Shown one piece after another: positions 4,235-61,984 of a stretch of 64,000 bases of DNA (positions within the stretch are counted from its first letter, which is position 1; each line of letters begins with the position of its first letter). The stretch is from assembly GCA_043732705.1 (NCBI GenBank), contig JAYTHE010000002.1, positions 56,385 through 120,384 on the forward strand. Direction: 5' to 3'. The notes beneath the pieces were generated by a model. It worked only from the letters and a program-made list of their open reading frames with translations. It was not told the DNA's origin and did no database searches. This DNA is from Candidatus Omnitrophota bacterium. Lineage in GTDB: Bacteria > Omnitrophota > Omnitrophia > Omnitrophales > Aquincolibacteriaceae. The position numbers and the translations under genes were made by a program.

Positions 4235-4239
4235 AAGCC

Positions 4240-4360
4240 GCACAAACCAAGGTAATTAAAATGTTCAGACAGCCGATGCTTCGCTCGGAACTCACATTTT
4301 AATTACCTTGGTTTGCGCTTGATTTTGAATTAAGGGCGTGGGAGCGATAAAAAGGAAAAA
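4240..4360. repeat. Short copy (c1) of the composite intergenic repeat family: a nested hairpin module plus a GGGCGTGGGAGCGATAAAAAGGA box
   Basis: Outer 24 bp inverted repeat GCACAAACCAAGGTAATTAAAATG / CATTTTAATTACCTTGGTTTGCGC. It encloses a conserved inner module TCAGACAGCCGA-tgcttcgc-TCGGAACTCA. The following box is similar to the GTGGGGTGGAGGCAATAAAAGGAG box of copies c2 and c4. Confidence 0.5.
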
Positions 4361-4457
4361 ATTTTTGCCTGCCGGCGGTCAAAAATTTTTCTATGATGCA
4401 TTTCATTCTCGCTTCTGCAGGAAGCAAGAATGAAAAGGGTTTAAAAAAAAGGCGAAA

Positions 4458-5977: not shown

Positions 5978-6005
5978 TTGACACTGAAAAAAAAAGGCGT
6001 ATAGT
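5978..6005 (+). promoter_or_regulatory. Sigma70-type promoter candidate for the KimA-like transporter
   Basis: TTGACA at 5978-5983, a 16 nt spacer, then TATAGT at 6000-6005. Confidence 0.4.
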
Positions 6006-6009
6006 CCGC

Positions 6010-6130
6010 TCCTTATATGCCTAATCCGCTTTAACCAGCGGTACGGGGGACCCAAGTTCTTGGGGCGAATCATCGCAAGATGAAAGGTTATCTCGACCTT
6101 AGCCCGTCAGCTAACTTCGTCGGCATCAAG
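6010..6130 (+). promoter_or_regulatory. Candidate c-di-AMP (ydaO/kimA-type) riboswitch in the 5' leader of the APC transporter gene
   Basis: The leader contains ACGGGGGACCCA and UGGGGCGAAUCA elements between the promoter and the start codon. The downstream gene has the APC-plus-C-terminal-domain architecture of KimA (YdaO), the classic gene under this riboswitch. Called from memory of the motif and not verified by a covariance model. Confidence 0.4.
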
Positions 6131-6138
6131 GAGAAAAA

Positions 6139-8151
6139 ATGGAAACCAAACAGCCGGCATCCGGCTTGCCCGAGTCATTTCTTAAACAGATCAAAAAAAC
6201 TCTTTTCGGACCGCCCCGGAATCTTCACGATCCTTCGATCAAGCATCAGCTTTCTCTGATCGCATTTTTTGCTTGGGTTGGATTGGGTGCCGACGGACTT
6301 TCTTCTTCAGCCTACGGACCGGAAGAAGCTTTTCGCGCGCTCGGTCAAAATACCTATCTCGCCATCTTGCTTGCGGCAGCGACGGCATTAACTGTGTTTA
6401 TTATTTCCTCCGCCTACAGTCGCATTATTGAAACTTTTCCTTTGGGCGGCGGAGGTTACGTTGTCGCGACCAAGCTCTTAGGAAAGCCCGCTGGCGTAGT
6501 TTCGGGCAGCGCCTTGCTAGTGGATTACATTCTCACCATTACCGTTTCCATTGCTGGTGGAGGTGACGCGCTTTTCAGCCTTTTGCCGCAAGCCTGGATG
6601 GTTTTCAAACTACCGACAGAGATTGCCGCGATCGGTCTTTTGATCCTGATGAATTTGAGAGGCGTGAAAGAATCCGTTGCCGCGCTTGTGCCGATTTTTT
6701 TGATATTTGTGATCACGCACATCGTTCTCATTTTAGGTGGACTTTTGATTCATATTCCCGAAGCACCGCGCATTGCCAAAGAAGTGACGGATGGCTTTCA
6801 TTCTGGAGCATCCACGTTGGGATGGGGCGGCATGGCGCTGCTTTTTCTACGGGCCTATTCTTTAGGCGGCGGAACCTATACCGGAATTGAAGCTGTTTCC
6901 AACGGTGTCGGTATTTTGCGCGAACCCAAAGTGATTACCGGAAAAAGAACCATGCTTTATATGTCAGTCTCACTTGCGCTCACGGCGGGCGGGTTGCTTG
7001 TCTGCTATATGCTTGCGCATGTGAAGCCGGTGGATGGGCAAACTTTGAATACGGTTCTTGCAACACAATTGATGGGCCCTCTTCATGTCGCGGGTATTCC
7101 GATCGGCCATGCGATTGTTCTAATCACAATTTTATCCGAAGCCGTTTTGCTTTTGGTCGCGGCACAAACCGGATTTATTGACGGCCCGCGCGTAATGTCC
7201 AATATGGCGCAAGATTCATGGCTGCCGAAACGTTTCGCGATGCTTTCCGACCGTTTGACGATGCAAAACGGAATTCTTCTGATTGGCGCCGCTTCGATTG
7301 CGATTCTTGTCTACACTCGCGGCCACATAGGAACCTTAGTGGTTATGTATAGTATCAATGTGTTTTTGACTTTCTCTTTATCGGAATTAGGAATGATGCG
7401 GCATTGGTTTCAAAGCCGCAAAATTTCTAAAAAATGGAAGCGTGACTTTTTGATTCAAGCCGCGGCATTTACGCTCTGCTTCTCGATTCTTTGTGTCATG
7501 GTGTATGAAAAATTTACAGAGGGCGCGTGGGTGACTTTGTTGATTACTTCTTCCTGCATCGCGCTTTGCTTCATCATTAAAAACCATTATTACAGTGTCG
7601 CGAAGCGTATCCATGAAATCGATAAATTATTTGAAGCTGTTCCGCCGGATAACCGCGCGGCAGCGATGCTAGAATTTAATGAGAAAAATCCAACAGCGGT
7701 AATTTTAGTCGGCGGACATAGCGGATTAGGCACGCATATTCTTTTGAATATTTTCAGGTTATTTCCAAGCTCATTTAAGAATGTGGTGTTTTTAACCATT
7801 GGTATTGTGGACAGTACTTTTTTTAGGGAGAACAACCAAGTTGAAGTGGTCACGAAACAAAGCGAAGACATGCTCGGGCGTTATGTCGAAAGCGCGCGTC
7901 ATATGGGTGTTCCCGCGCGGTTTGAGTTTCATGTGGGCACGGAAGTGGTACAGTCGGCCGCGGAGCTTTGCATTGAGGTTTCAAAAAAATATCCCCGCGC
8001 GGTCTTTTTTGCGGGCGAGCTCGTGTTTGAACAGCCGCAGTGGTATCACCGCATTCTGCACAATGAGACAGCGTATGCGATTTTAAGACAAATCCGGTTC
8101 GCGGGATTGCCGATGGTTATTCTTCCGATACGGATTCGAGAGAAACTCTGA
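6139..8151 (+). CDS. APC-superfamily permease with a C-terminal cytoplasmic domain, possibly a KimA-like K+ transporter
   Basis: About 12 TM segments (aa 40-470) followed by a roughly 200 aa soluble domain. A riboswitch-like leader precedes it. Confidence 0.55.
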   Translation: METKQPASGLPESFLKQIKKTLFGPPRNLHDPSIKHQLSLIAFFAWVGLGADGLSSSAYGPEEAFRALGQNTYLAILLAAATALTVFIISSAYSRIIETFPLGGGGYVVATKLLGKPAGVVSGSALLVDYILTITVSIAGGGDALFSLLPQAWMVFKLPTEIAAIGLLILMNLRGVKESVAALVPIFLIFVITHIVLILGGLLIHIPEAPRIAKEVTDGFHSGASTLGWGGMALLFLRAYSLGGGTYTGIEAVSNGVGILREPKVITGKRTMLYMSVSLALTAGGLLVCYMLAHVKPVDGQTLNTVLATQLMGPLHVAGIPIGHAIVLITILSEAVLLLVAAQTGFIDGPRVMSNMAQDSWLPKRFAMLSDRLTMQNGILLIGAASIAILVYTRGHIGTLVVMYSINVFLTFSLSELGMMRHWFQSRKISKKWKRDFLIQAAAFTLCFSILCVMVYEKFTEGAWVTLLITSSCIALCFIIKNHYYSVAKRIHEIDKLFEAVPPDNRAAAMLEFNEKNPTAVILVGGHSGLGTHILLNIFRLFPSSFKNVVFLTIGIVDSTFFRENNQVEVVTKQSEDMLGRYVESARHMGVPARFEFHVGTEVVQSAAELCIEVSKKYPRAVFFAGELVFEQPQWYHRILHNETAYAILRQIRFAGLPMVILPIRIREKL

Positions 8152-8968: not shown

Positions 8969-9009
8969 TAATCGTGAGCTGCTTGCTAAATTCTATGTGT
9001 ATGCGAGGA

Positions 9010-9495
9010 AATCACTTTTAACATTTATTATGCTCAAACAGCCGGTGCTGCGCCCGGAACTCGCCTAATAAATATTAAAAGTGATTTTTTTCACCTGAGT
9101 GGGGTGGAGGCAATAAAAGGAGAAGCAAGGCGGCCAAATGGAGCTTGCTCGAATTCGCTTTTATTTTATTTGCTAATTACAGGCCTCAAGCTTGGCTGGT
9201 GAAGCTTCCGACCCTATCTTCTTCTGACCAGGCAAGCCGTGCCAGAAGAAATATTTCCTCAGTTTCTGCTTGGCCGAAACTGAGGAAGATATAGCGGGAA
9301 ACTTGTTTGAATTCCTTGAGGGCTAGAGCAGCAATGATATTATCGCATTTCGAGACACTTAGATTCGCAGGCCTTGTTTCACTGCTTTTAGCCTAGACCC
9401 CCACTATCGCGCTGAAATTGTAAATTAAGATTATCAAAATGCGAGTTCTGTGTCGAAGGACACAGTTGTTTGAGCCGAGTGATAATCTTAATTTA
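9010..9495. repeat. Full-length copy (c2) of the composite intergenic repeat element, about 490 bp, bounded by inverted nested-hairpin end modules
   Basis: Left module 9010-9086: outer stem AATCACTTTTAACATTTATTA / TAATAAATATTAAAAGTGATT around GCTCAAACAGCCGG-tgctgcgc-CCGGAACTCGCC. Right module 9421-9495 is the same motif in inverse orientation (GCGAGTTC-tgtgtc-gaagg-acacag-TTGTTTGAGCCG) inside the palindrome TAAATTAAGATTATCA / TGATAATCTTAATTTA. The interior shares conserved boxes with copy c4 at 61403-61890. Confidence 0.55.
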
Positions 9496-9533
9496 CGATC
9501 AACTCCTTGCTCTCAAGTGAATCGAGCGGATTT

Positions 9534-10775: not shown

Positions 10776-11357
10776 ATGGAAAAGCAAAAGCCACGCTGCG
10801 GTTGGGCCAAAGAAGGGTTGATGCGGCGCTATCACGATGAGGAATGGGGTGTGCCCGTTTATGAAGACCAAAAGCAGTTTGAATTCTTGATCCTTGAAAG
10901 TGCGCAGGCCGGTTTAAGCTGGTCTTGTGTGCTTAATAAGCGTGAAAATTACTGCAAAGCTTTCGCCGGCTTTAATCCTAAAAAAGTGGCGCAGTTTGGC
11001 GCCGCGGATGTCAAAAAACTTTTAAATAATGCCGGAATTATCCGTAACTGTCTCAAAATTGAAGCCGCGATCAATAATGCCAAGCGTTTTCTTGAAATTC
11101 AAAAAGAATTCGGTAGTTTTTCAAATTATATTTGGCCTTTTGCCGCGAAGCTCAAATCCAAACCGCTTAAAACTTTGAAAGATTTACCGGCGATGACAGC
11201 TGAGTCAGAAACTTTGACCAAAGATATGAAAAAACGCGGATTCAAATTTTTGGGCGGAACGGTGCTTTACTCGCATATGCAGGCCGTCGGTATGGTGAAT
11301 GACCATTTGGTTTCTTGTTTCCGGCATCGAGAGATCAAGCAATTATGGAAAAAATGA
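10776..11357 (+). CDS. tag: DNA-3-methyladenine glycosylase I
   Basis: RCGW...YHDEEWGVP...[15 protein letters not shown] is the Tag family signature. Confidence 0.85.
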
Positions 11358-11641
11358 CAAGCGGTCCGGGATGGTCTCTGTCTTCCGATGACGAACCTAA
11401 GCCGGTTAAAAAAGCCAATCCTGATTCTCCCAAGCCCCAGATTCGATTGGAAAAAAGAGCCGGGAAATATGTTACGGTGATTGCGGGTTTGCATACTTAT
11501 GGCTCAGACCGGTTGAATACAATTGCCAAAGAATTAAAATCGCTTTGCGGTTCCGGTGGAACTGTTAAGGACGGGGTGATTGAAATTCAAGGCGATAAAG
11601 TAAAAGTTATTCAGGCCTGGTTTCAAAAGAATATCAAGTAG
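11345..11641 (+). CDS. yciH: SUI1/YciH-family translation initiation factor
   Basis: [16 protein letters not shown]...[17 protein letters not shown] is the SUI1 domain signature. The preferred start MEKMTSG overlaps the end of tag. Confidence 0.75.
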
Positions 11642-12512
11642 AAGGCATTTTGAGCAAGTGTCCGAGCTGTTCTTTATCTTGCTCAGAATCATCAGTTTGA
11701 GAATCCGATGACTGCGCCGCTTTGGCAGCGAGCCCCTGCATGTCTGCGGGCGCTTTTGACAAAGAGCTTTTTTCTGTAGCCGCAGCGCCTTGCTCAACGT
11801 GTATTTTGCCCTTTTCATCGATCATAAAATGACTGGATTTATCCGCGCCTTGAATGGGATCGGCATACACTTGGGCTCCCTGGTCGGTTGCTTCGACTCG
11901 AAAGCGGTAACCATTTTTGCCGTCTTTATAACTCGGATCGACTCCGCCTTCTTTAATTAACCTGTCCAAGTTTAACTTTTTTGTTCCGCCTTCTTCCATG
12001 GCGATGGCGGTTGCCTGGGAATGAAGATTGCGAAGGTCAACCATGACCGAAAGTTCAGAAGCATAATTTTTTAATGCGCCAAGATCAAGGCCTCCGAACA
12101 TTTTTTTTAATTGCTCCAAGGGGTCCAAAGACGACGCGGAAGCGGGAGGTGCGGCTGGAAGAGACGCTGCTTGCTGCATTAGCGGCAGCGGTTGAACCGG
12201 GGCCGCCGGTGCGGGAACTGCGGCAGGATGATTGCCGCCTTTAATGCGCTGCTCGGAAATTTTCCCCGCGGCATCTTTTACAAAAATCCGGTCCTGTTTG
12301 ACTTCCATGACTTGATAGCCCTGGTATTGTTCGCCTTTTTTATAAATATTTCCGTCAATGACGGCAAAGGACTGAGAGGGATTTTTGGATTCATAGACGA
12401 TACCTTCGACCGGAAGAGCTTCGTCTACCGCGTAAGATTTTTCCGTAAGGGGAAAAATGACAAGGATGGCGGCCGCGCACAAGAATAAACATGGGTTGTT
12501 AGAACATTGCAT
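11634..12512 (-). CDS. Secreted hypothetical protein with a Pro/Ala-rich linker, possibly pilus or secretion related
   Basis: Signal peptide [28 protein letters not shown]. The track ORF extends to 12551 and the inner ATG is preferred. No firm family assignment. Confidence 0.4.
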
Positions 12513-12665
12513 ATATTTTATTTCGACTTCCCCTATAAAAACATGACTCACTAAAAGTGTGCCGTTATCTTATAAATATTAAAAGGGTAGAAGCATTGTT
12601 TTTGCTTTCGTTTTAGAATAGGAAAGTTAATAAATTTTTTGAAAAACTTATTTAAGGACAGAAAA

Positions 12666-24873: not shown

Positions 24874-26058
24874 GTGAAGAAAATTTTAGTTGTTCTGATT
24901 CTTTTAGCTTTCGCATCGGCGGGATGGTTTTATTTCAACCGTGTGCATGGGGACTTGTCGGCAAGTCATGCGCAAGAACAGTATCAATGTCCTATGCATC
25001 CGCAAGTGGTTCAAGATCATCCCGGAAATTGCCCGATTTGCGGCATGCGGCTGAATCATTTAGCCTCCGAGCCTTCGGCTCAACCGGCGGAAGGGCAAAA
25101 AAAAATAGCCTTTTACCGTAATCCGATGAATCCTAAGGTTACCTCGCCCGTTCCCGCGAAAGATGAAATGGGTATGGATTATATTCCGGTCTATCAACAG
25201 ACGGGAGATGCTCTGCCCGCATCCGATGTGCCTGATCATGGTGCGGTGATGCTCAGCGCGGATAAAATTCAAACCATCGGAATTCGTACGGCTGAAGCGC
25301 GCATCAGCAATTTAATTCTCTCTTTGCGTGTCACCGGCACAGTTTTCCACAATCATGAAATTTACGAAATGCTTACGGCTTATCGTGATGCGATTCAGGT
25401 CGAACAGCGTGTCAAAAAACCGACGCCGGAACTTGTAGCGCAGTCGCGCGTCAAAGCTAATGATTTGCGGATTAAGTTGCGGAGGTATGGCATCGGCGAT
25501 GAGGTGTTTAAGAAAGCGGCAGAGAACTTGGCGGATCCCACCAGTTTTATCCCTGCACATTTAATTATCGCAGCCAACGGAGCGTATGTGGACGCGCGTT
25601 TGCCGGCTGCGGAAGCTGTTCGTGTGGCTTTGGGACAAAAAGCTCGGCTGATGTCATCACTTTTTCCGGATAAAACTCTTGATGGAATTGTGAAGTCAGT
25701 CGATTCAATTGTGGATTCAGAAACTCAAACTGTCGCTGTGCGGATTGAAGTTCAGAATGGACATGAGCTTTTGAGGCCCGGACTTTTTGTGAATGTGGAA
25801 ATGGATATTGAGACAGGCAATAAGCTTGCGGTTCCGGAAGACGCGATTTTAAATTCGGGGCGTGGCGCTTATGTGTTCATTGAAAAATCCGCGGGTGTTT
25901 TTCTGCCAAAGCATGTTGAAACCGGATTGACCGCCGGAACAAACGTGGAAATTATCTCGGGGCTTGCTGAAGGAGAGAAGGTGGTCATTTCAGCAAATTT
26001 TCTTTTAGATTCTGAGTCGCGCTTCGAAGCCGCGCGGCAAGGTGGTTCCTATGATTGA
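24874..26058 (+). CDS. cusB: RND efflux periplasmic adaptor (CusB/SilB-like) with an N-terminal CPMHP metal-binding module
   Basis: YQCPMHPQVVQDHPGNCPICGM module plus membrane-fusion-protein beta-barrel/lipoyl regions. Confidence 0.8.
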   Translation: MKKILVVLILLAFASAGWFYFNRVHGDLSASHAQEQYQCPMHPQVVQDHPGNCPICGMRLNHLASEPSAQPAEGQKKIAFYRNPMNPKVTSPVPAKDEMGMDYIPVYQQTGDALPASDVPDHGAVMLSADKIQTIGIRTAEARISNLILSLRVTGTVFHNHEIYEMLTAYRDAIQVEQRVKKPTPELVAQSRVKANDLRIKLRRYGIGDEVFKKAAENLADPTSFIPAHLIIAANGAYVDARLPAAEAVRVALGQKARLMSSLFPDKTLDGIVKSVDSIVDSETQTVAVRIEVQNGHELLRPGLFVNVEMDIETGNKLAVPEDAILNSGRGAYVFIEKSAGVFLPKHVETGLTAGTNVEIISGLAEGEKVVISANFLLDSESRFEAARQGGSYD

Positions 26059-29863: not shown

Positions 29864-32038
29864 ATGAAAGAGCACGCTTGCTGTCGTTCTCCAGTTAAAG
29901 CAGAGCAACCGCCGCCAAAAAATGCCGGTGGTTACACTTGTCCGATGCATCCGGAGATTGAGCAAGACCATCCCGGAACTTGCCCAAAATGTGGAATGGC
30001 GTTAGAACCCAAAAATGCTTCTGCTGCGCCTGAAAATCAAGAATATCACGATATGTTGCGACGATTCTGGGTGAGCTTAGGTCTTTCTGTGCCCGTTGCC
30101 TTTTTTGCCATGACCGAAATGCTTCCAAATAGGCCGTTTCAAAGTTTTTTATCTATGCAGCATGTGAATTGGATCGAATTTGTTCTTGCAAGTGTTGTTG
30201 TGTTTTGGGGAGGGCTACCTTTTTTTGAGCGCGGTGTGGCGTCGATTATTCATCGCAGCTTGAATATGTTCACGCTTATCGCATTGGGTGTGGGTGTGGC
30301 GTATGTTTACAGCGCCTCTGCAACGCTTGCGCCTGGAATTTTTCCGGCAAACTTTCGCGGGCACGGCGGTGAAGTGGCGGTTTATTTTGAAGCCGCGTCT
30401 GTTATTACCGTTTTAGTTTTGCTGGGGCAGGTTTTAGAATTAAAAGCTCGTACGCAAACCGGTGAAGCGATTCAAGCACTTTTAAATCTTGCGCCAAAAA
30501 TGGCGCGTGTTATCGCGGCGGATGAAATAGAAAAAGACATTCCTATCGAAAATGTGCAGCGTGGCGATAAGTTACGTGTGCGGCCCGGCGAAAAAATTCC
30601 GTCGGATGGTTTGGTTGTGGATGGCGAGAGCGCAGTGGATGAATCGATGGTTACTGGCGAATCTATGCCCGTTGAAAAATCTAAAGGCTCAAAAGTTGTC
30701 GGCGGCACGGTCAATGGCACAGGCAGTTTAATTGTGCAGGCTGAAAAAATCGGCAGTGAGACTTTGCTTGCTCAAATTGTGCATATGGTCGGTGAAGCAC
30801 AACGCAGCAGAGCGCCGATCCAGCGTTTGGCCGACATCGTTGCGGCTTATTTTGTTCCGATGGTTTTGGTTGTAGCAGCGATTACTTTTTTTATTTGGGG
30901 GTTTTTCGGACCGGAACCGAAAATGGTTTATGCGATTGTAAATGCTGTGGCGGTATTGATTATTGCTTGTCCTTGCGCGCTAGGGCTTGCGACACCGATG
31001 TCTATTATGGTCGGCGTAGGCCGCGGCGCAACAGCCGGAATTTTAATCAAGAATGCCGAAGCGCTGGAGGTTTTTAGAAAAGTTGATACTCTGATTTTTG
31101 ATAAAACGGGCACGCTCACCGAAGGTAAACCCAAACTTGTTTCCGTTGCTTCCGCGCCCGGAATGAACGAAGCTGATTTTTTACGATTTGCCGCCAGTTT
31201 AGAACGCGCAAGCGAACACCCATTGGCGCAGGCGATTGTTAAAGGGGCCGAAGCAAAAGGTGTTCGCTTTTCCGAAATCCAAAATTTTAAATCGGTTACC
31301 GGCAAAGGCGTTCAGGGCACTTTGGACCGCAAGCAGGTTCTTCTCGGGAATCAAAAATGGATTGAAGAGCTGGGCGTTATTACCACGGATTTTTCCGCGC
31401 AAGCAGACAAGCTGCGTGAAGACGGCCAGACGGTTATGTTTGTGGCGGTTGAAAAGAAAATTGCGGGAATACTTGGCGTGGCCGATGCGGTTAAAGATTC
31501 GACGCCGGAAGCCATTCAATTGCTGCACCAAGACGGCCTCAGGCTCATTATGGTTACCGGCGACAATCCGGTCACGGCAAATGCGGTAGCAAAAAAACTG
31601 GGCATTGACGAAGTGCGCGCGGGTGTTTTGCCCGAGCAAAAAGGCGCAATTGTGAAAGAATTACAGGCGCAAGGCAAGCGTGTCGCGATGGCAGGTGATG
31701 GCGTGAATGACGCGCCCGCGTTGGCGCAGGCGGACGTGGGTATCGCCATGGGAACAGGTACGGATGTTGCGATGCAAAGCGCGGGAGTCACGCTTGTCAA
31801 AGGTGATTTGCGCGGCATTGCCAAGGCGCGCGCATTAAGCCGCGCGACGATGGCCAATATCCGTCAAAATCTTTTTTTCGCATTTATTTACAATCTTCTC
31901 GGTGTGCCGGTTGCCGCGGGAATTTTGTATCCTTTTTTTGGAATTTTGTTGAGTCCGATTATCGCCAGCGCAGCCATGGCTTTTAGTTCAGTTTCGGTTA
32001 TCATGAATGCATTGCGCCTACGCCGTATTTCTCTCTAG
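29864..32038 (+). CDS. copA: Copper-translocating P1B-type ATPase
   Basis: N-terminal [22 protein letters not shown] module, a TM CPC motif ([13 protein letters not shown]), DKTGTLT phosphorylation and [10 protein letters not shown] hinge motifs. The start is chosen at 29864 after an AAGAGAGG SD. Confidence 0.9.
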
Positions 32039-37898: not shown

Positions 37899-40409
37899 AT
37901 GAGAAAGCAAACGTTAAAAATAAATCAAATCCTCGCGGCATTTCAAATTGCAGGAATTGTTTTTTCACAGAATGTTTTTGCAGCCGATCTTATGCTGGTG
38001 AGCAATCAACCCGTAGCGGTTGTTTCGGCAACAACCGCCGCAACATCAACAGCTGCGGCGCCGATACCGGCTGACCCGCTCGCAGACCATCCGCTTTCCG
38101 CCGCAACTATGCCGCCGCTTCCTGCAGGTTATACACGCGCGGCATCGAATATCAATTTTGCGTTTCAGGTCAAGTCGACCGGAACGTATGGAAAAAGTCT
38201 TGTTCTGCGAGATTTAAGAACGAACGTTGAGCAGACATTGGCTGGTTATTCGATCGAGACTTACGGAGAAAATATTTTTAAAGTTTACGACGTTTCTCCT
38301 GACGGTCAATTTGTCGTGTTCGCCGACAAAAGCGGGGATGAAGCGCGGCTTCAGCGCATTGATAATCCTGCCAGTAAAATCAGTGTGAATATGGCGGGTA
38401 CAGGAGGATTAGGTGCGATTGAGTGGGCTGGAACAGGAAGCGCTTCCACTGTAATTTTGACCAATCTCGTCGGCAGTCAAAGTCAAAATGTCCTCGTCGG
38501 TAGTCAAAAGGTTACGGTTCTTCTTTCAACATTCACCGTCATACCTAACTTACCTGCGGGATATGTGCGCGCGGAATCGAATGTCAATTTTGCCTTTCAG
38601 GTCGACACTCTCAATACTTATTTGTACCGGTTGAAGTTAATGGACTTACGGACGGGACAAATTCAAATATTGGCGACATCGTCGCTGGAATCTTACGGCG
38701 ATAAAGTCTTTAAAGTCCGGGATGTTTCACCAAGCGGGGAATTTGTCGTGTTTGCGGACAAAGGCGGCAGCGAGGCGCGGCTTCAACGCATTGATAATCC
38801 TGCCAGTAAAATTAGTGTGAGTATGGCGGGTACAGGAGGATTAGGTGCGATTGAGTGGGCTGGAACAGGAAGCGCTTCCACTGTAATTTTGACCAATCTC
38901 ATCGGCAGTCAAAGTCAAAATGTCCTCGTCGGTAGTCAAAAGGTTACGGTTCTTCTTTCAACTTTCACGGTCATGCCTAATAATTTGATTCAGCCTTCTC
39001 AGACATTGTCGTCTTACAACATCCGGCCGTTGCCGACAGACGGCCGCGCTCAGGGAGATCAGCCTTTTCCGACCATAACAACCGTGGCGCCTGCAGGTGC
39101 AGTCGCAATATTGGGCCAAAATGCGCGCGGTATCCAGTCTTCTTATGAAACACGCAGCGCAGGGTGGGCGGGCGTGGGATTTACTTTTGATAATTTTTCA
39201 ACGACTGGAATCGAAACAGGAAATTTGTCAATTCTTTCTCAACTCACGTTCGGAGTAAGGGGGGATACTTCAACGATAAAATTAGAAGTTGTGGATTCGC
39301 TAGATCGAAAAGCAGTGATTCATCTTACGGGAATTCGCTCCGATATCGAAGGTGTATGGTCAATTCCTGTTTCGTCCTTGACGGGGATTGATCTTGGCAA
39401 GGTACGGATGATTTATTTCATCGTCGAAGGGGATAACAAGACCGGTGCTCTTTATATCAATCAGTACCCGCTTGGCTCGAGCTTTCCAAAGGTGTATCAA
39501 TCCTCAACGGAAATTACTGCGCTACCCGGGAATCCTGCCAATAACACAGTCATTCCCAATGGCGCGACTGCATCAATGACAGCCACAGGCCGCGGCGGTG
39601 TTCTGACTTATAATTCCGGTGCCCCGGGATGGGTGGGCGGAGGATTCAATTATGACAATTTTTCCACAACAGCGATTGAAACAGCGGATTTTAGTGTTTA
39701 TAAGCAATTAATCTTCGGACTTAAAGGCAGTCCTTTGCGGGTCAAGCTTGAATTCATTGACGACCAAAACAAAAAGGCAGACTTTTATTTGGAGCAAATA
39801 CGGACTGACCTTGAGAATGAATGGGCTGTTAGCACGGCCGATATCATTGCCGCCGGCGTGAATCTTCAAAAAATCAGGATGATTTATTTTATTATTGAAG
39901 GCGTGAATCAATCCGGAACGCTTGAGATTAATCGCATGCCCACAGTAATACAACCAAATATGGCGGCAAACATTCAAGCGTTGCCGGAAAGCCCCACACC
40001 GCGTGTTGTCAAAGTTGCGCCCGCGACGGGCACAATTGCGACCGTATCGACGCTTTCACGCGGCGCTCGGCTGGATTATCAGACCGGCACGCCGGGATGG
40101 GCAGGAGTTGGATTTACTTATGATGATCCGGCTACACCTGCAGTCGAAAGTGTGAATTTAAGCACTTTGCCTTATCTTGGATTTGGGATAAAAGGCAACG
40201 CCACCCAGGTCAAGCTGGAACTTGTAGATGCGGACGGCCGCAAGGCTTCCGTGAAGTTGACCGGCATTCGAAGTGATTTGGAACAGCGGTGGGCAATTTC
40301 GCTTTTACCTTTTGCGGCTTACGGGATCGATTTGACGCGAATCAGAACGCTGTACTTTATCGTGGAAGGCCAAAATCAAAACGGTATCCTCGATATTTAC
40401 CGGCTTTAA
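37899..40409 (+). CDS. Large secreted repeat protein: two N-terminal repeats of about 145 aa plus three CBM/CIA30-like modules of about 110 aa; likely a carbohydrate-binding surface protein under LacI control
   Basis: A signal peptide is present. The N-terminal 435 bp unit is duplicated, and a roughly 240 bp stretch (38301-38540 against 38730-38970) is nearly identical. The motif GWAGVGFT.D.......E is repeated three times. Confidence 0.55.
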   Translation: MRKQTLKINQILAAFQIAGIVFSQNVFAADLMLVSNQPVAVVSATTAATSTAAAPIPADPLADHPLSAATMPPLPAGYTRAASNINFAFQVKSTGTYGKSLVLRDLRTNVEQTLAGYSIETYGENIFKVYDVSPDGQFVVFADKSGDEARLQRIDNPASKISVNMAGTGGLGAIEWAGTGSASTVILTNLVGSQSQNVLVGSQKVTVLLSTFTVIPNLPAGYVRAESNVNFAFQVDTLNTYLYRLKLMDLRTGQIQILATSSLESYGDKVFKVRDVSPSGEFVVFADKGGSEARLQRIDNPASKISVSMAGTGGLGAIEWAGTGSASTVILTNLIGSQSQNVLVGSQKVTVLLSTFTVMPNNLIQPSQTLSSYNIRPLPTDGRAQGDQPFPTITTVAPAGAVAILGQNARGIQSSYETRSAGWAGVGFTFDNFSTTGIETGNLSILSQLTFGVRGDTSTIKLEVVDSLDRKAVIHLTGIRSDIEGVWSIPVSSLTGIDLGKVRMIYFIVEGDNKTGALYINQYPLGSSFPKVYQSSTEITALPGNPANNTVIPNGATASMTATGRGGVLTYNSGAPGWVGGGFNYDNFSTTAIETADFSVYKQLIFGLKGSPLRVKLEFIDDQNKKADFYLEQIRTDLENEWAVSTADIIAAGVNLQKIRMIYFIIEGVNQSGTLEINRMPTVIQPNMAANIQALPESPTPRVVKVAPATGTIATVSTLSRGARLDYQTGTPGWAGVGFTYDDPATPAVESVNLSTLPYLGFGIKGNATQVKLELVDADGRKASVKLTGIRSDLEQRWAISLLPFAAYGIDLTRIRTLYFIVEGQNQNGILDIYRL

Positions 40410-41260: not shown

Positions 41261-44200
41261 TTGATTTTTGAAAAAGATCAGTTACGTTTCCTTAAAGTTG
41301 TTTCATCTAAGAAAAAGGAATCGATCGTGCTATCCCAAAATCATTTTTTTTATTCTGCGCGTTTGCGCCGTGTTATAGCTTTTTTTCTTGTGATAGTGTT
41401 TCTTTTTTCTGACTACGCTTTTCTTCCTGCGAGCTTTGCACAAACCCTGCGTGCAACGGGTGCTGGCAATTTGTCCGCTTCGAATTTCGTTCCAATGAAA
41501 CTGGCTTTTTCTGAATCGTGGGGAAAGGTTGACGAAACGTTTAAGGGAGCTTCACAGAAAACATTAATTTTGATTCAGGACGCGCATGATTCGCTTGAAG
41601 CTCAGGAAAATATTGCGCATCTTGTTGATTATTTTGTCCGCGAGAAAAAAGTTCATACCGTTTACGAAGAAGGGCTAGAAGGCAAAGTTCCCACCGACGA
41701 TTATTTCGGTTTTATCCGCAACTCGGATGTGAAGCGCGAAGTCGCTTATTATTTAATGGATCATTTGCGTGTCGGTGGTGCTGAGTATGCGCATATTAAT
41801 CGTCACCGGCCGTTTAATTTGGTCGGAATCGATAATCATAAACTGCATGAACAAAACTTGTTCTGGTTTCGACGTGTTTTTCAAAATAGCGATGTTATTC
41901 AAAACGACTTGCGATTGCTTAAAAAACGCCTTCAAAAAATCGCCGATAAAAAATTAAACAAAAAAATAAAGAGCTGGCTCAAAGGTTATGAGCGTTATCA
42001 TCGCGGCGAAATGGCTTTTTATGATTTTCTGCGCCCCAGTGTCGATGCGCTCGGCAAGCAGCCTTTTCCGTCCAAACAGTTTCCTCAAATTCAAATCCTG
42101 CGGGAACCTTCCGATTTAGCGCAAATCAAAACACCGGAACTTTTTAAAGAAGTCGAAAGCTTTGATTCCTGGATGCTCGAAGCTTTGGGCCATAATGCTG
42201 ATGAAAAAGAACTTTTACGGCTTTTTCGACAAGTTATGCTTTTCGAAAAACTCAGCACTTTTAAGCTGACGCCCCATGAATTTAAATGGGCGCAGGAAGT
42301 TCTCAGGTCATTCAACACGCAAGCCGCCGCCAAATTTATCCACCGTGCATCTAATCAATCCGTTGTGCTTTCGACGGTTTGGGAATCTTATTTGCGCGAC
42401 GCATTACAGTTTTATGAAACGGCCTATGCGCGTGATGAGGCCGTCGAGCAAAATCTTGCGAACGGTTTTTTGAATGACAAAGAAAATGAAGCCGTGCTCG
42501 TCTTCGGCGGATTTCATAAAGATGCCATCAAAAATATTTTGCAGAGGCACGGGATTTCTTATGCTGTAATCAGTCCTAAGATCTCGGGAGTTTCGAAAAG
42601 GCATCAGGCCTATTATCAGGAAATTATGGCACATGGATATTTGAAATCAGAACTTCCGCAAGCCTTGGCGCGTGCGACGGTTCAAAACCATGTTTTTCAA
42701 ATTACTTCCCGCGAAGGTTTTCCCGCATATTTACGAAGAGTTCTGCCCCCACGTCTGTCTTCTTTGCTGCCTTTGACAATCGCACGTTCTGAACAACGCG
42801 ATAACGGTATCGAACGTGTGGACTACCCTGACTCCCATTTGCGCATTGCCATGGCGCAAATCAATACAACCGTCGGAGATTTTGAAGGCAATTATCGTAA
42901 AGCTTTAGCATCGTATGAAAAGGCGCGCACTCAAGATGTGGATGTGCTTGTTCTGCCCGAGCTAACTATTTCCGGTTATTTGCCGGAAGACTTGGTCAAT
43001 AAAGAACATTTTGTGCGCCAAAACAAAGAAACATTGCATTTGTTTGCGAAACAGATTCAAGACATGACGGTGGTGATCGGATTTATTGATTCCGATGATC
43101 AGGGTAATTTGTATAACGCCGCCGCGGTGATCTCAGACGGTGAAGTCAAACATGTTTATCATAAATGGGATTTGCCGAATTACGGCGTGTTTGACGAAAA
43201 ACGAAATTTTACCGGCAAAGAAACAACGATTTTCACTCCCGGACACACGCCATTTGTTTTTACGGTTAAAGGTTTGCCGGTGGGCCTTAATATTTGTGAA
43301 GACATATGGAATGACCGCGGTCGCGGACTCAATGTGTATGAAGAAGAAGCCAAGTTGGGCGCAAAATTACAAATCAATATTTCAGCGTCTCCTTTTCATG
43401 AACAAAAACTGGATCAAGTCCGCTTAGATTTGTTGCGAAAAAGAGCCGCGCAAACAGGTTCCATTATTCTTTATGCGAATTTGGTGGGGGGACAAGATGA
43501 GGTTGTTTTCGACGGTGGCAGCATGATTATGACTCCGCAAGGAGAGTTGACTGCGCGTGGAGCCCAGTTTCAAGAAGACCTCGTTATTACGGACGTTGAT
43601 TTAAGCCGTTCGAATAATCAGCCTCATGCGGATGCGCTTTTCCCCGCAATGAGCCCGTCGCAAAACAGCAGCCGTAAGGTTCCGCTCGAAAAACGTGAAT
43701 TAACACCGCCGCTTTCGGCAATTGCGGAAGATTACGAAGCGATGGTTCTCGCGACGCGTGATTATTTAAGAAAAAGTGGTTTCAAAACAGTGGTTTTGGG
43801 TTTGAGTGGCGGAATTGATTCGGCGGTTGTCGCTGCCATTGCACGTGATGCGATTGGTGCTGAAAATGTGAAAGGCATTTCGATGCCGACACAATTTAAT
43901 AGTGAAGGCACGAAAAGCGATGCGCGCATAACCGCCGAAAAGCTTGGGATTAAATTTGAAGAGAATCCGATTCAGAACTTGTTTAGCCTGTTTCTAAGCA
44001 CGGTCGAAGGTAACGCCAAGACAGGCTTTGTGGCGACATTTTATGCCTTTTTACGCTGGTTTTCTATGATGCCCAAATTTGGACATTGGTTTCAACGTTT
44101 TTCCCTCGTCGGTTTTTCAGCGTTCGGAATTTCAGAAGAAAATATGCAAGCTCGCATTCGGGGCATGATGTTAATGCGTGAATCCAACAAAAATGGCTCG

Positions 44201-47200
44201 TTGCTTTTGACCACCGGCAATAAAAGTGAAACGGCAGTGGGTTATGCAACTTTATATGGAGATATGGCAGGCGGATTTGCACCGATTAAAGATGCCTATA
44301 AAACTAGAGTATTTGATTTTGCACGGTATGTGAATCAGCGCGATGCTAGAGAAGTGATCCCTGTGAGCACAATTGACAGACCGCCTTCCGCGGAATTAAA
44401 CAAAGACCAAAAAGATGAAGATGCGCTGCCGCCTTATGTGACGGAGCTTGATCCGATGCTCAAGCTTTATCTTGAAAAAAATGCCCCGGCTGAAGATTTG
44501 GCAGTTGTTGCCGGAATGAAACAGGCTTTAACAGAGAAGGGCATTTATTCGGAGGAGAAACATCGGCTTTTTGCGGACGAAGTTTTCACAACGGGCAATT
44601 TGATCCAGGCGCTTGCGAAACTTCGGGCGCAGCTTGGCAACCCCAATGACGAGCCCTTTTCCAGTCTTAAGGAAAGAGCCGCAGAATTAGGCTCCAAAAA
44701 AGCGCATGATGTGATTCGCCGCGTTGATTTAAATGAATATAAACGTCGGCAGGGACCTCCGGGAGTTAAATTAACACCGACCGCCTTTGGTAAAGACCGG
44801 CGCATGCCCATCGTGAATACTTATCGTCAAAGAGGGGTTGAAGATTTTTTACGCCGTGATGGCGCACCCCGAGCTGTAACAGTTAAAAAAGAAGACGCCG
44901 CGCTGATTGTCGGAAAATTCGCGCCTTTTCATAACGGCCATGAATCTTTGATTAGGCAGGCATTAAATGAAAATGAAAAAGTAGTTGTTTTGGTTTATGA
45001 CCATCCCGAATTAATTAATATTTCCGCCACTGAAATGGCTGAAATGATTACAAAAATTATTAACAACGAGCGTTTGACGGTCATTCCTGTTTATGGCGCC
45101 CCTCCGGCCGGAGATTCCCGGGAAGCACGTCAAGCGCATCTTGATTTCATGAAACGGCAATTGCCGCCCAATATTCATGTTACCAAGGTTTATAACAATG
45201 AATGGTATGGCAAAGATATTGCGAATGGATTAAATGCGGAAATTATTCAACCCGATCCTAAAAGAACGCAGATTGGTATTTCTGCAAAAAAAATCCGTCA
45301 AGATCCCACTTCGCTTGCGGAAGCCCATGTGCATCCGGATATGTGGGAGCGATTGCAAAAATCAGGAACTAAAATGTGGGCGGTTCCGGATCAGGAAAGG
45401 CTTTACCGTGAAGGCATGGATGCAAGTTTTGTTGATCGGTCCATGGACGAAGCTGAGAAGGTAAGAATCCGCGCAAGTATTGAGGCTAAAAATCCAGGCT
45501 ATGCAGATAAGGCTAAGCTTTTCGCACCCGTCAAATGGGATCCGGCAACGTACGAAAGTGAAAACCTTCCTTCAGTTGTTGGCAATCTGAGAGATCACGC
45601 CACATTCAGCCAGCAACGCGGTGTGCGTATTTTGGATTTATTAATCCGCGATCCTAAAAAAGGCTGGGCCATTCCGAAAGTTCTTGAGCCTTTCCGCGAA
45701 GCGATTCAAATGGCGGTGGAACATGAACGCGCGATCAACCCTGATTTTGATGAATTGCATGTTTACGTGACGATTGACCAAAAGAAAGTCGAGCCGGATA
45801 AATTTCAACGCCGTCCCGGCGGGCATGCCGATGCTTTTCCGACGAAAGAAACCAACAACATTTCATCGGAGCTTGTTTTGGATGACACCTACATCATGTC
45901 GGACCGGCCTGAAATTTCGACATGGCTCATGCCCGGACCTTTTCCGGTCAAGGATGTTGATTTGAATGATGATGAAGCCGTTTTGAAGCGTTTTGATGAG
46001 GTCGGACAAAAGCAAATCGCAGCCGGCAAAGCAAAGCAAATGCCCGCGTTTCAAATGATTCGCATGACGCCCTATGACATTCATGCGGTTGCGCAAAATA
46101 AGACAGGCCATCCGATTGAACGTACCTTTATCAAGGTGCAATTCAGCCGCGACCGTTTGAACATGATGGGCAATACCTTGAACCGCGTTGAAGATAAAAA
46201 GGGCACGCCTGTTTTTGATTATTCGGATTGGACATGGATTCCCCGCAAACAGGGGGTGCGTAATAACCGTAACAGTATTCTTGGTTGGAATCGCGCGGAT
46301 GCGGATCAATTTCTTGAAGTGGATCCTTCCAAAATTGATTTTAATCAGGGTAAAGTGGCTTTTGATTGGGCTGAGCCTGAAGTTTTATTTATTAAAAAAA
46401 TTGAGGGCGTGCATGCCGAGCCCGCGATTGAGGGCGAAGTTTTAGAGACAAAGGTCAATGGGGATATCGTCACTTTCAATATCGCGCAAAAAGGCGACCG
46501 AAAAATTACCACGAGCCAGGGCGATCAATATTTTTTAAGCGATGAAAAATTTAGAGACCGTTACTTTGCGGATGAAGGCAAAGACGGTTTTTATCAGCCG
46601 CAAGCGCAGGTTGCGCGAGCTATTCGTATTATAAAACCGATTCGTATTCGCTCTTCTTGGGGTGCCTGGCAATATTTGTCTGTGGGCAGTGTTCTCGTTA
46701 GTACACACGCCGATCATGCTTACGGCATTCATAAAGATAATTATGAAGCGTCTTATCGCCGCACCGATGCTGAAGGCAATTTTCTGAGTGAACAATTATT
46801 GAATCCTGATCAGGTTGTTTCAGCAGATGTTTCGCCGGCTCTTAAAGGACAAATCGAGAGTCTTAATCCTGCTCATTCAACAGATAATCTTTTTGGTGTG
46901 GCCAAATGGGATGTCGCCGGATTCAATGAACCGCATTTACCGGTAGTCATCAGCGACACACTTTCAAATCGTGACAATGTCAGCTATTTTGAAGGTGACA
47001 CAGGTATACGCTACTTGGACCTTTTAATTTATGCCCCCGGCCAGGGGTGGGCCATTCCAAAAAATTTGGAACCGTTTATAGAACCGATTCGTTTAGCTTA
47101 TGAAGCAGAACGTTTAGCGAACCCTGCTTTTAAAGAACGGTTCATTCATATTACCGTTGATCAAAAAACAGTGCCAATAGACAAGCCCGGGCGCAGACCA

Positions 47201-50200
47201 GGATTGCATGCGGATGCCGGTTTGAAAGATGCGAATGGCCGTTCAATCGATGTGCTGGCTGAAAATCGCAGAGAGATTGAAGCGATGCGCGGCAAGTCGT
47301 CGGATCATGCGTATGTTTTTTATGATAAATTACCGACGGAATTTTATCCCGGGCCTTTTCATTTGGAACAAGCCGCTGACGGCGCCACTTTTGAATCTTT
47401 GGTTCCTCCCGGACAAACGCCCGTTACTTATCCGAAATTTACTTTGCTGCGGCTGAATGCTTTTGATGTACACACATCCACAATCAATCAAACCGGTGAG
47501 TCACAAAAACGGACATTTTTTAAACTTCAATTTACCGAACGCCTTTTGGACCGCCCAAATAATTCAATCAATTCCTTTTTGAATTATGACCGTGCCCGCG
47601 CGGTTTCAGTACAGCGCTCCGAACAGCGTTCAAACATGAGCCGTGAGGATGCGCTCGCGAATATTGCGAGATTGAATGCTGCGCGTCCAAAGGGTTACCC
47701 GGAAAGAAGCTTGAATCTTACCAAGCCTTATACTGCGCCGATTGTTTATAAAAATGCGCGTTCGAAGAAAAATCCTTATGGTTGGGCGCATCCTGATTTA
47801 AGCGACTCAAAAATTTCCGCGGCTGATAGACACCGTGCAATTGAAACATTGCGTGCCCATATTATGCGTTTTGATGAGCAGTTTGATCTAAGAACCGATT
47901 TTGATCCGGAAACGGGTTTGCCGGTTAACGATGCTGAAACCGGCTTGAACGGCAGAGGATCACTTGGGCGACATGGACCCAATCCGGCTGAAGATGCGAT
48001 TTTTTTGCGTTATAACAAAGCGGGTGAGTTGGAGGTTTTGGTGATTGAAAGAAATGACGGCGGCGGCCGGGCTTTGCCGGGCGGCATGATCAAGGAAGGG
48101 GAAGAAAATTTAGTCGGTGTGACATCAACTCGAGAATTAGAAGAAGAAACTAAGCTTCAAATTGATATGACGAAAGGTGTGGTTGTTTTTCGCGGGAAAG
48201 CGAATGAATGGCGCGATACCAATGATGCATGGATGGTGACACGAGGTGTGGCAGTTTTGCTTTCATGGGAAGAGTCCCAGCATTTAAAACCGCACGCAGG
48301 AAGTGACGCCAAGAAAAAGACTGCGCGCTTTGTTAAAGTTACCGACAATATGGGGCTTTACGCGCATCATCAAATTAATGTGAATAATGCCGTTGCGATG
48401 GTGAGAAATGGACAGCTTCAAACTTCAGATGAGGCTATCAACAAAAATATACCGGCTGTAGATATCACCATTACAGACATTGAAGAGGCCTATGAATTAT
48501 TCAAGGCGGGCAAAGGAAAAGTGTCAGAAAGTTACGATTTAATTGTGCCCGAAACTCCGCATGGCGGGGGCTATGCCGTTTTCGCGGGGCTTGAAGAAAC
48601 ACTTTCTTCAATTCGCCGCCGTCGATTTACACCTGATCACATCGCGGCTTTGCGCAAAATGGAAACTTTTTCAGAAGACTTTTTAAAATTTTTACAGCAA
48701 TTTACATTTGAAGGCGATTTGGATGCTTTGCCGGAAGGATCGGTTGTTTCACCGAAAATTCCTTTAATGCGTATTCAAGCCACGCCCGTGGAAATGGCGC
48801 TTTTAAAAGGTTTGATTCAAAACCGAATTGGTTTTAGTACGAATATTGCGACAAAGACTGCCCGAATTACTCAAGCGGCTAATGGTGATTTCGTGACTCC
48901 CGAGGCAATGGAACGTTTGCGCAAGAAAGACGGACTCGCTCCCGAGCAAGTCAAAAAAATACGCCCCGTTTCGGATTTTGGTCAGCGTCGAGGGCAGGGT
49001 AAAGGTTCGCTTGTCGCATCCCTCGCGGCAATTATTGGCGGAGCTATTTCGACTTCGTTTGTAAAAGCGGCAAAGCAGTTTTTCTTGAATGCAAGCGGAA
49101 CGATGGCGCATCTTTTTATCTCGTCTTTTCCGGCAAAATTAGAAATTATGGCTTTTCGTATTTGGGGAAAAATTTATCCGAAGACCTCTATTTTCCTGCT
49201 CGACACCTATGATTCAATTGAAGCGACAAAAAAAGCAATTATTGTCGCAAAAGAAATGGTCTTAAACGGAGGGCAGCTTTTTGGCGTTCGCTTAGATAGC
49301 GGCGATTTAGTGGTGCTATCGCGCACGATTCGAAAAATGCTGGATGATGCCGACCTTCACTATGTCAAAATTTTCGCGACGGATGATTTGGATGAATTTA
49401 AAATTACCGACATTTTATCAAAAGGCGCGCGCATTGACGGATTTGGCGTTGGCACGAATTTAATCACGGGCGGTAAACAAGCTACCTTAAAGTTGGAGTT
49501 TGTTCCATCTCATGGCGAGCGTTATTGGCGCGCGCGGCATCAAGGGCAATTTACGCGTTATGTGCGCACTGACAGAGACCGCGTGGCGCATGCGAGCTAT
49601 GGTGAAGAAATGACGGAGTTGCTCCGCCCCTTTTGGCGCAAGGGCCAACGTGTTCAAGATGCTAAAAAGCCCTGGAAAGCGCATGAGCGTGCAATTGATG
49701 AGCTTAGGCAATTTAAGCCCGAAAATAAAAAATTAGAAAACGCAGCCACGATTCCCGTTGAAGACCAAAAAAATCCTTTGACGATTAACCCCGAAACAGA
49801 TGCCATTATTTCGATTGACGCCACAAAAGCATTTATGAAAAAGGGTGGTTTGCCGGTGAAAGATGGCGACGATGTTGTTGCGCCCATCAAATTGCTCTTA
49901 CGGCGCTTTCCGAAAAATCGGCGTTTTGCGGCTGTAGACAAACATCCGCGTGGACATATATCTTGGGCAAGCTCTTTTGTCGGAACTCCACCCATGACTT
50001 ATTTAACTTATGAAGAGGTTGAAAAGTGGACGGATGCAAATCATAAAATTGGGCCGAATGCTAAATTTGACTTAGCGCAGCTTAAAGAAAAACTTAAAAG
50101 AATTGGCGGGCAAATGCTATGGCCCGATCACGCTGGAGAAAACACTCCGGAGTCGGAGCTGCATCCTGATTTTCTGGAAAGCGATTTTGAATATATTGAA

Positions 50201-61346: not shown

Positions 61347-61402
61347 TCAGTTTTTCTTTCTGCTCTTCGATCGATCCAATATACAAAGCGCTTAAGCGCC
61401 TA

Positions 61403-61890: not shown

Positions 61891-61984
61891 CAGTGAACCC
61901 AGCTCATGGTTTTTACGCCACGCTGTAGTCTGTAATCTAAAGCCGGATTGTGCTAAAATACTTTTTTCTTGAAGGAGCATTTTT

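Follow-up and report, generated by a model that had tools for sequence, protein, structure and literature searches.

We analysed a 64 kb window (64,000 nt; contig JAYTHE010000002.1, positions 56,385 to 120,384, assembly GCA_043732705.1) from a Candidatus Omnitrophota bacterium, in which copies of a hairpin-rich, non-coding repeat occupy three intergenic sites. The first, c1 (4240-4356), lies between livG and livF; the second, c2 (9009-9496), separates a pseudouridine-synthase-like gene from a convergent YaeQ-like gene; and the third, c4 (61396-61893), lies between pntB and a tandem FTCD_C/fchA-like gene. c2 and c4 are diverged copies of a ~490 bp element with arms that are ~65% identical, and c1 is a truncated copy cut ~35 nt past its hairpin. 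The original prediction, made from the letters of this window, held that the three sites share a distinctive hairpin module and that collinear boxes lie between the ends of the two long copies. Sequence comparison and covariance models agree on the former. The boxes are all present in c2 and c4, and the alignment of these copies spans the entire ~490 bp. The similarity therefore extends beyond the hairpin into the arms. With conserved ends, collinear boxes and relatives outside the source genome, the loci represent a true repeat family.

Two covariance models, run over the whole window with filters off, found exactly five modules: c1 (4237-4327, plus strand), the left and right modules of c2 (c2L, 9006-9096, plus; c2R, 9409-9501, minus) and those of c4 (c4L, 61393-61486, plus; c4R, 61809-61900, minus). 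The pattern TCAAACA-N10-30-GAACTC matches four times in the window, compared with 0.04 expected from shuffled sequence. Three of these matches are c2L, c2R (on the minus strand) and c4L, and the fourth, at 55135, is unrelated and coding. Variants of the motif are found in c4R (AATTCG) and c1 (TCAGACA...AACTCA). The search covered these 64 kb of the source genome and ~20 kb from each relative.

As had been suggested, the element shows no sign of coding potential. No reading frame is conserved, and a 1-nt indel interrupts GGTGG(A)GGC. The sole open reading frame (ORF) that is open in c2L, c4L and the related unit L067 (= L002, introduced below) shifts frame from copy to copy, and neither right half keeps it open. 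A coding or type I toxin function was rejected because the frame is not conserved and the peptides are not membrane-like. Screening the whole window with Rfam 15 at the gathering threshold matched a cyclic di-AMP (c-di-AMP) riboswitch alone, and searching c2, c4 and the L067 unit at E values up to 5-10 returned only sub-threshold, miRNA-like hairpin noise.

Each module is a long hairpin built from A/T tracts and a GC stem, and its tip carries a conserved asymmetric internal loop. The two sides of this loop read 5' TCARACAR and RAAYTC 3', and they enclose an inner hairpin with a GC-rich stem of 4-8 bp and a variable loop. Outer stems span 17-28 bp among the ten distinct modules now known. Those in the window (17-25 bp) are copy-specific, as originally described, but the claim that they are perfect palindromes applies only to c2R, with its 17 bp. 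The others are mostly near-perfect, with one A.C mismatch in c1, one C.A mismatch and a bulge in c2L, four mismatches in c4L and three in c4R. The outermost 20-25 bp differ between copies, and the conserved part is the apical cassette only.

The c1 module (4240-4318, plus strand; covariance-model scores of 82.4 and 76.7 bits) pairs 4240-4263 with 4295-4318 and carries TCAGACAG at 4265-4272, the inner hairpin at 4273-4288 and AACTC at 4289-4293. c2L (9009-9087, plus) has the same layout, with the outer stem at 9009-9032 and 9064-9087, TCAAACAG at 9034-9041, the inner hairpin at 9042-9057 and AACTC at 9058-9062; its stem leads into a T7 run (9085-9091). c2R (9420-9496, minus) is closed by 9420-9436 and 9480-9496, and on the plus strand its inner hairpin (9448-9465) is followed by TTGTTTGA. 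c4L (61396-61477, plus) pairs 61396-61420 with 61453-61477, has TCAAACAG from 61421 and continues from its stem into TCTTTTTT with a T6 run. c4R (61822-61893, minus) pairs 61822-61841 with 61874-61893; its inner hairpin at 61848-61864 is again followed on the plus strand by TTGTTTGA. Three known structures were considered and set aside: a kink-turn or loop-E motif in the internal loop (no tandem G.A and no AGUA/GAA on inspection), group II intron ends (GUGYG and domain V not conserved on inspection) and an integron attC core (no match to GTTRRRY).

The module belongs to a larger unit of ~245 bp, which consists of the module hairpin, an arm of ~115 nt with invariant non-palindromic boxes and a short perfect hairpin at the far tip. 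Aligning the left halves of c2 and c4 with their reverse-complemented right halves yields this single collinear unit, from the module through the tip hairpin, and an nhmmer profile made from these two copies finds its own loci on the reverse strand (E = 6.5e-27 for c4 and 5e-23 for c2). c2 and c4 are accordingly tail-to-tail inverted dimers. This arrangement explains why they resemble elements bounded by terminal inverted repeats (TIRs) and why they fold as rods. The TIR-like ends proposed at the outset are real insofar as the modules are inverted; they represent the two ends of an inverted dimer, and no target-site duplication was seen around them. In c2 and c4, left halves group with left and right halves with right, and the dimer must therefore be older than the split between the two copies. 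Left and right arms are 56.5% identical within each copy and 58.9% and 56.9% identical between copies. Because identity within a copy is no higher than between copies, the rod-like fold is what descent from an inverted duplication would produce. An invertible promoter switch was rejected, as the segment is itself palindromic and inversion would alter little.

Within a unit the arm reads GGGGTGGAGGC, GAGAARCAAGGC, a 16 nt spacer, CTCGAA, an AT-rich box, GCCYTCAAG and AGYTTCC. The boxes common to both long copies are GTGGGGTGG(A)GGCAAT, GAGAAGCAAGGC, CTCGAANNCGCNTTTATTTTATYTG, GCCTCAAGCTT, AGCTTCC, CGGGAAACT, TTCGAG and GCCTTGTTTC. The left arm of c2 (9099-9216, plus) carries GTGGGGTGGAGGC, GAGAAGCAAGGC, CTCGAA (9148-9153), TTTATTTTAT, CCTCAA (9184-9189) and AGCTTCC. 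It is followed by tip hairpin a (9219-9250), a perfect 8 bp palindrome of TTCTTCTG and CAGAAGAA, and by its inverted counterpart, tip hairpin b (9257-9285), a perfect 10 bp palindrome of CCTCAGTTTC and GAAACTGAGG. The right arm (9287-9404, minus) is an inverted copy of the left and shows CGGGAAACT, TTGAGG, TTCGAG, GCCTTGTTTC and GCCTAGACCCCCAC on the plus strand. In c4, the left arm (61490-61608, plus) has the boxes of c2 with a 1-nt deletion in GGTGG-GGC, the tip hairpins at 61610-61642 (TTTTTTTGTC and GACAAAAAAA) and 61655-61687 (TTTTCCTAGT and ACTAGGAAAA) are both perfect 10 bp palindromes, and the right arm (61689-61804, minus) is again an inverted copy. c1 had been taken for a bare module. 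It does contain the module, but it also keeps ~23 nt of arm (GGGCGTGGGAGCGATAAAAAGGA, 4334-4356, plus), where the unit ends; the first 15 nt of this remnant match the start of the c4 right arm (GGGCGTGGAAGCAAT) at 13 of 15 positions. Between truncated c1 and livF, at 4367-4400, there is another hairpin, whose stem is entirely A/T (AAAAATTTTTG...CAAAAATTTTT). A 224 bp spacer with two strong hairpins is unusual for a liv operon.

Stem pairing in the nested hairpin was assessed over ten distinct modules, five from the window and five from relatives. All 28 pairs vary on both sides, and 93% of stem cells are paired; none of 500 shuffles reached this level of covariation, and slid controls were 37-48% paired. 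The inner stems covary between copies just as had been stated, and the module stems are clearly maintained. The original prediction went on to argue that such covariation identifies a functional RNA, and this step does not hold. Mismatches in the module stems comprise 12 G.U and 10 A.C pairs, and this equal frequency leaves no strand signature. Each of the five tip hairpins forms a perfect Watson-Crick palindrome, and the pairing of the core follows from descent. RNAalifold found no conserved fold within a single arm (-11.6 kcal/mol) and no covariation outside the tip hairpin. Module covariation gives no pointer to an RNA made from one strand.

Relatives of the repeat have so far been found only in a few Omnitrophota assemblies, and the proteins encoded in the window likewise point to Omnitrophota. 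A scan of a collection of genome contigs with CTCGAANNCGCNTTTATTTTAT returned one true relative and one chance match in coding sequence. The true relative is L067, a Candidatus Omnitrophota metagenome-assembled genome (GCA_043718225.1), in which a single unit without a partner arm lies 3' of a dps gene. Further modules were sought at syntenic loci in relatives of L067 whose HemH proteins are 60-83% identical. In all, five distinct modules were identified outside the window, distributed among L067, L069, L070, L073 and L075; the one in L069 is of the c4L subtype and is joined to a decayed arm. No module was present in ~120 kb from other Omnitrophota loci, which comprise ~90 kb around relatives of PntB (82% identity) and of the APC permease (~70%) as well as two more relatives of Dps. 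Metagenome contigs searched with CAAGGC-N15-17-CTCGAANNCGCNTTTA gave 27 matches, all coding or due to chance (for example, the LEDAFI motif of ABC transporters). Two scans of viral contigs yielded chance matches only, and blastn of c2 against plasmids found nothing.

The single unit of L067 is directly followed by a restriction-modification island (10865-12559) that encodes a BamHI-like endonuclease and an N6/N4 methylase. The segment downstream of dps, which extends to a PUA-domain methyltransferase where that gene is present, differs in gene content in every relative (L067, L069, L070, L073 and L075), and this region looks like an integration hot spot. L068, a 1.1 kb Logan contig encoding the same Dps protein as L067, stops mid-module at 1056-1101 (model positions 1-46 of 94). 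Judging from this contig end, the hairpin or repeat may break short-read assemblies.

Comparison of orthologous loci revealed that the element is present, absent, replaced at its apex or flipped while the flanks remain unchanged. The spacer between pntB and fchA is 639 bp in the window, compared with 138 bp and no element in L089, which encodes the closest PntB relative (83% identical) and keeps the order pntB-fchA-folD. Four states were observed in the intergenic region between convergent QueH and 95-aa genes. L067 has a plain terminator, AAAAAACCCCGGGC-CGAA-GCCCGGGGTTTTT; L070 has a cassette in the forward (plus) orientation; L075 has the cassette of L070 in flipped orientation; and L073 has a different, flipped cassette within flanks that are near-identical to those of L070. 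Across L070 1765-1810 and L075 2965-3006, the loop sides and inner stem that form the module core are identical and inverted relative to the flanks, and all four loop bases differ (CTTT compared with ACAA, in the module's own orientation). At the HisK-ArsP locus, a degenerate module in L067 corresponds to a 20 bp gap in L075, and downstream of dps the full unit of L067 corresponds to plain hairpins in L070 and L075. Replacement and flipping of the apex within conserved flanks would show that an exchange process operates at the level of DNA.

The position and anatomy of the module resemble those of a transcription terminator. The hairpin end of the unit adjoins the 3' end of a flanking gene in every case except c4R, which forms the outer end of its dimer. 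The outer stems consist of an A-rich tract, a GC stem and a T-rich tract, which is the design of the plain bidirectional terminators in these genomes. In L070, L073 and L075, the GC stem is flanked by ATAAAAATAAAAAG...CTTTTTATTTTTAT, and plain terminators of like design occur at L067 2908-2940, L070 10480-10526 and 33449-33490 of the window. In the direction that comes from the arm, (U)UGUUUGA (YUGUUUGA) stands after the inner hairpin, which gives it the build of a canonical small terminator, and a terminator scan scored c2R and c4R as terminator-like on the plus strand. As judged from sequence, the modules have the GC-rich hairpin and U-tract at a gene 3' end that characterise an intrinsic terminator. 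We infer that the hairpin terminates the neighbouring gene or genes; the module would be a nested terminator whose anatomy and position are directly observed and whose activity is predicted.

All five intact units also contain promoter-like hexamers at one aligned place, pointing towards the hairpin. These comprise TTGRGG, a spacer of 15-16 nt and TAAAAT, TATTAT or TAATAG, with TCGAGG and a 14 nt spacer in L067. In the left unit of c2, the putative pair occupies 9163-9189 on the minus strand (TTGAGG 9189-9184, 15 nt, TAAAAT 9168-9163) and faces the left hairpin; it falls below the scan threshold because of its 15 nt spacer. The right unit of c2 has TTGAGG, 16 nt and a TG-extended TATTAT at 9316-9343 on the plus strand, facing the right hairpin, and this candidate is the only one in the elements to pass a sigma-70 scan. 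A weak promoter-like pair is found in the c4 right arm, also on the plus strand (TTGGGG 61716-61721, 16 nt, TAATAG 61738-61743). In the orientation towards the hairpin, the consensus fold leaves ~70 nt unpaired before the hairpin, and this segment holds UUCGAG, GCCUUGYUUCUC and GCCUCCACCCC. Together, these features suggest that each intact unit encodes a candidate small RNA (sRNA) of ~125 nt and that c2 and c4 would be divergent pairs of such genes. Complements of the boxes, which could serve as sRNA targets, were not enriched in the window beyond the elements themselves.

The source organism uses canonical sigma-70 promoters, as seen where TTGACA, 16 nt and TATAGT precede the riboswitch. The riboswitch region (5979-8151) consists of this upstream promoter, the c-di-AMP riboswitch itself (6008-6140, 85.5 bits) and, directly following, a 670-aa APC-family permease whose relatives are mostly from Omnitrophota.

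We propose that the loci are a dispersed, palindromic, non-coding repeat of the repetitive extragenic palindromic/bacterial interspersed mosaic element (REP/BIME) kind or of the MITE (miniature inverted-repeat transposable element) kind, working as a bidirectional intrinsic terminator and perhaps carrying sRNA genes; we regard this as about an even bet. According to this proposal, the module hairpin would end transcription of the neighbouring gene or genes in both directions. The apex cassettes would move or be exchanged at the DNA level, through ectopic conversion via similar A/T tracts or through a hairpin-recognising enzyme. In each intact unit, a weak sigma-70-type promoter (TTGRGG, 15-16 nt, TAAAAT or TATTAT) aimed at the hairpin could produce a ~125 nt sRNA with an unstructured, CU-rich 5' part that ends at the nested terminator. 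Several observations weigh against this proposal. The window ORFs that were scanned include no gene for a transposase, a REP-associated tyrosine transposase (RAYT) or a recombinase, and inspection revealed no target-site duplications at the borders of c1, c2, c4 or L067. Copy number is low in the DNA that was searched, with five modules in 64 kb and none in the ~120 kb from other Omnitrophota. The copies are old and diverged (arms 57-68% identical) and have nonetheless kept invariant boxes, a combination more in keeping with purifying selection on a function than with a selfish element that was active recently. TCARACAR and RAAYTC are conserved more strictly than a U-tract requires, which leaves some sequence-specific recognition unaccounted for. 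Of the five putative promoters, a standard scan accepts a single one; the spacer is 15 nt in three, and one lacks the T at -7. The covarying, perfect tip hairpins also have no role in the sRNA part of the model.

The original prediction had left a choice between an sRNA family and a structured MITE. That pair of options stands, and the evidence favours a palindromic repeat at the DNA level that possibly expresses small RNAs as well. The units could instead be primarily a family of genes for a trans-acting sRNA of ~125 nt, each with a promoter, a CU-rich seed and a nested terminator, rather than a mobile repeat. c2 and c4 would then be divergent gene pairs, and solo hairpins would be decayed genes kept as terminators. 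The invariant boxes are unstructured, like seed regions; the promoter-like hexamers are in register in five of five intact units; and the inner hairpin with its U-tract is terminator-like in the matching orientation. Moreover, divergence among the paralogues of one genome is as great as that between copies from different genomes, and the boxes are still kept; truncated c1 and L069, which lack the promoter region, have decayed arms. We nevertheless consider a primary sRNA family fairly unlikely. The units occupy seven different loci in few genomes and are missing at orthologous sites, so that a spreading mechanism would be needed anyway, and the apex cassette has been replaced and flipped within identical flanks. 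Weak or non-canonical promoters, the lack of any target complementarity in the window and the unexplained tip hairpins also count against it. A classical MITE would be an internally deleted transposon with terminal inverted regions of ~245 bp, mobilised in trans by the parent transposase, or, in a variant, a REP/REPIN (REP doublet forming a hairpin) system in which a RAYT-type HUH enzyme recognises the inner hairpin and its conserved single-stranded flanks. Such an element would explain the inverted ends, the intergenic sites, the presence/absence polymorphism and the truncated copies anchored at one end. A hairpin with conserved single-stranded flanks is also a substrate of the HUH type, as used in IS200/IS605 and by RAYT, and the end of Logan contig L068 falls close to where the module begins. 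Yet conservation does not reach the extreme termini, formed by the outer stems; target-site duplications are not visible, and none of the copies are near-identical. The ~420 kb examined revealed no autonomous partner, and no transposase domain is present in the scanned window ORFs or in the gene tables of the fetched loci. The motif lacks the GTAG head of REP, and the two ends are inverted, unlike the same-strand left and right ends of IS200/IS605. A classical MITE in either form is therefore improbable in our estimation.

Two further explanations place the function in RNA. The long copies might each specify one large non-coding RNA (~320-490 nt) that functions through its fold, a rod with GUGGGG...CCCCAC as its closing pairs and with processing hairpins on its flanks. 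Both strands do fold strongly (z = -6.3 and -8.4), RNAalifold of c2 and c4 gives 71 pairs with 13 compensatory changes and a more stable plus strand (-68.6 vs -53.8 kcal/mol), and either strand reads its first module in the non-terminating and its second in the terminating sense. Nine of the 13 compensatory pairs, however, fall within the local tip hairpins, and the two arms of a copy pair over long range no better than arms from separate copies do, as inverted duplication alone would give. L067 is a lone unit without a partner arm, the asymmetry between G.U and A.C is lacking, no conserved promoter precedes the arms in that direction, the T-runs past c2L and c4L would block read-through, and Rfam offers no match; a long structured RNA is consequently very unlikely. 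Alternatively, the module might act in cis in the flanking mRNAs as an RNase III-type processing site or a 3'-end-stabilising site, to which the arms would be incidental. Its lower stem of at least 17-28 bp is topped by a conserved asymmetric 8x5 internal loop and then by an upper stem; two cistrons of the liv operon flank c1; and in tandem contexts the mRNA of the upstream gene always reads the adjoining module as TCAAACA...AACTC (c1, c4L and L067). Orientation nevertheless flips at the QueH locus, mismatches have no strand bias, and the conserved arms and inverted dimers are left unexplained, and we consider a cis-acting RNA site highly improbable. The turnover data raise one more possibility, that the apical cassette of ~40-55 nt (the proximal GC stem, TCARACAR, the inner hairpin and RAAYTC) is itself a miniature mobile element that replaces the tips of terminator hairpins and flip-flops, driven by an enzyme that recognises hairpins or cruciforms. 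The 245 bp unit would then be a full-length form that carries an sRNA. Four allelic states at one orthologous terminator are the expected trace of a mechanism that replaces tips, although we regard this idea as speculative and rather doubtful.

Omnitrophota is an uncultured phylum with almost no described non-coding biology, and the dispersed palindromic repeat described here is the first defined intergenic repeat family in it. A covariance model of the hairpin module is now provided; the module marks gene ends, and the intact units are concrete candidates for sRNA genes. The replaced and flipped terminator tips deserve attention if a dedicated mechanism exists. The family is also a clean case of perfect stem covariation at the level of DNA, and it illustrates that covariation alone is not proof of a functional RNA.

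Other features of the window merit brief description. A giant ORF of 4563 aa (41261-54952, plus strand), to which the Logan gene table assigns CN_hydrolase, NAD_synthase, NUDIX, NAPRTase_N, Isochorismatase, Inositol_P and Hydrolase domains, appears to be a very large fusion of enzymes from NAD metabolism. An 836-aa ORF without a Pfam match (37899-40409) contains a tandem duplication at 38121-38963, with a period of 432 bp and copies that are 84-86% identical. Finally, 24988-25047 and 29939-29998 have a 60-nt stretch in common (77% identity) that reads CPMHP. This stretch overlaps the heavy-metal-binding domain (Pfam HMBD, residues 37-60) of a CusB/HlyD-like gene and also starts a 735-aa ORF, and the two genes look as if they sit in a metal-efflux cluster.

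Among known systems, the RNase III sites of phage T7 (R1.1 type) are hairpins between cistrons in which a conserved asymmetric internal loop separates a lower from an upper stem. The Omnitrophota module has a comparable order of stem, asymmetric loop and stem and a comparable intercistronic placement, but there is no sequence similarity, and its lower stems are much longer and perfect. DNA uptake sequences and uptake signal sequences (DUS/USS) occur in thousands of copies, and inverted copies form terminator stems. They resemble the present family in that a short conserved motif recurs inside terminator hairpins in either orientation; here, in contrast, conservation falls on unpaired bases, and copies are few in number. 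The similarity to bidirectional Rho-independent terminators lies in the A-tract, GC stem and T-tract between convergent genes. Such terminators usually have loops of 3-8 nt, whereas the module carries a conserved cassette of ~40 nt that is itself a small terminator in one direction.

MITEs and foldback repeats such as Correia, ERIC, RUP and the Coxiella QMITEs, some of which yield sRNAs, are likewise non-coding, intergenic and a few hundred bp long, with inverted ends, an ability to fold as one long hairpin and presence/absence differences between strains. Presence/absence polymorphism, as expected of a mobile repeat, was observed here at pntB-fchA, QueH-95aa, HisK-ArsP and downstream of dps. 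Bacterial repeats of this kind can supply promoters, terminators and small RNAs (PMC5896051, PMC10969869). The present family differs in that its extreme termini are unconserved, it has no target-site duplication, no near-identical copies and no cognate insertion sequence (IS) that we could see, and its long form is an inverted dimer of a unit that also occurs singly.

The REP/BIME elements of enterobacteria and pseudomonads, including REPINs (PMC2817692), are short imperfect palindromes with a conserved asymmetric motif, extragenic and located at gene 3' ends, either singly or as inverted pairs with conserved linkers in mosaic elements, and they act as terminators or as stabilisers of mRNA 3' ends, a kind of role that the present family may share. 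In the repeat described here, a much longer A/T-plus-GC stem instead bears the motif at its apex as an internal loop (TCARACAR / RAAYTC), and the GTAG head is absent; two ~150 nt arms with promoter-like boxes serve as the linker; the copies are highly diverged and few, with five modules in 64 kb, against more than 100 copies per genome for REP/BIME elements; and no RAYT or Y1_Tnp domain was found among the window ORFs scanned. Like REP/BIME elements, however, the family consists of extragenic palindromes at gene ends, in alternating orientation and with conserved linkers, and the most fitting label for it is a new family of dispersed palindromic intergenic repeats.

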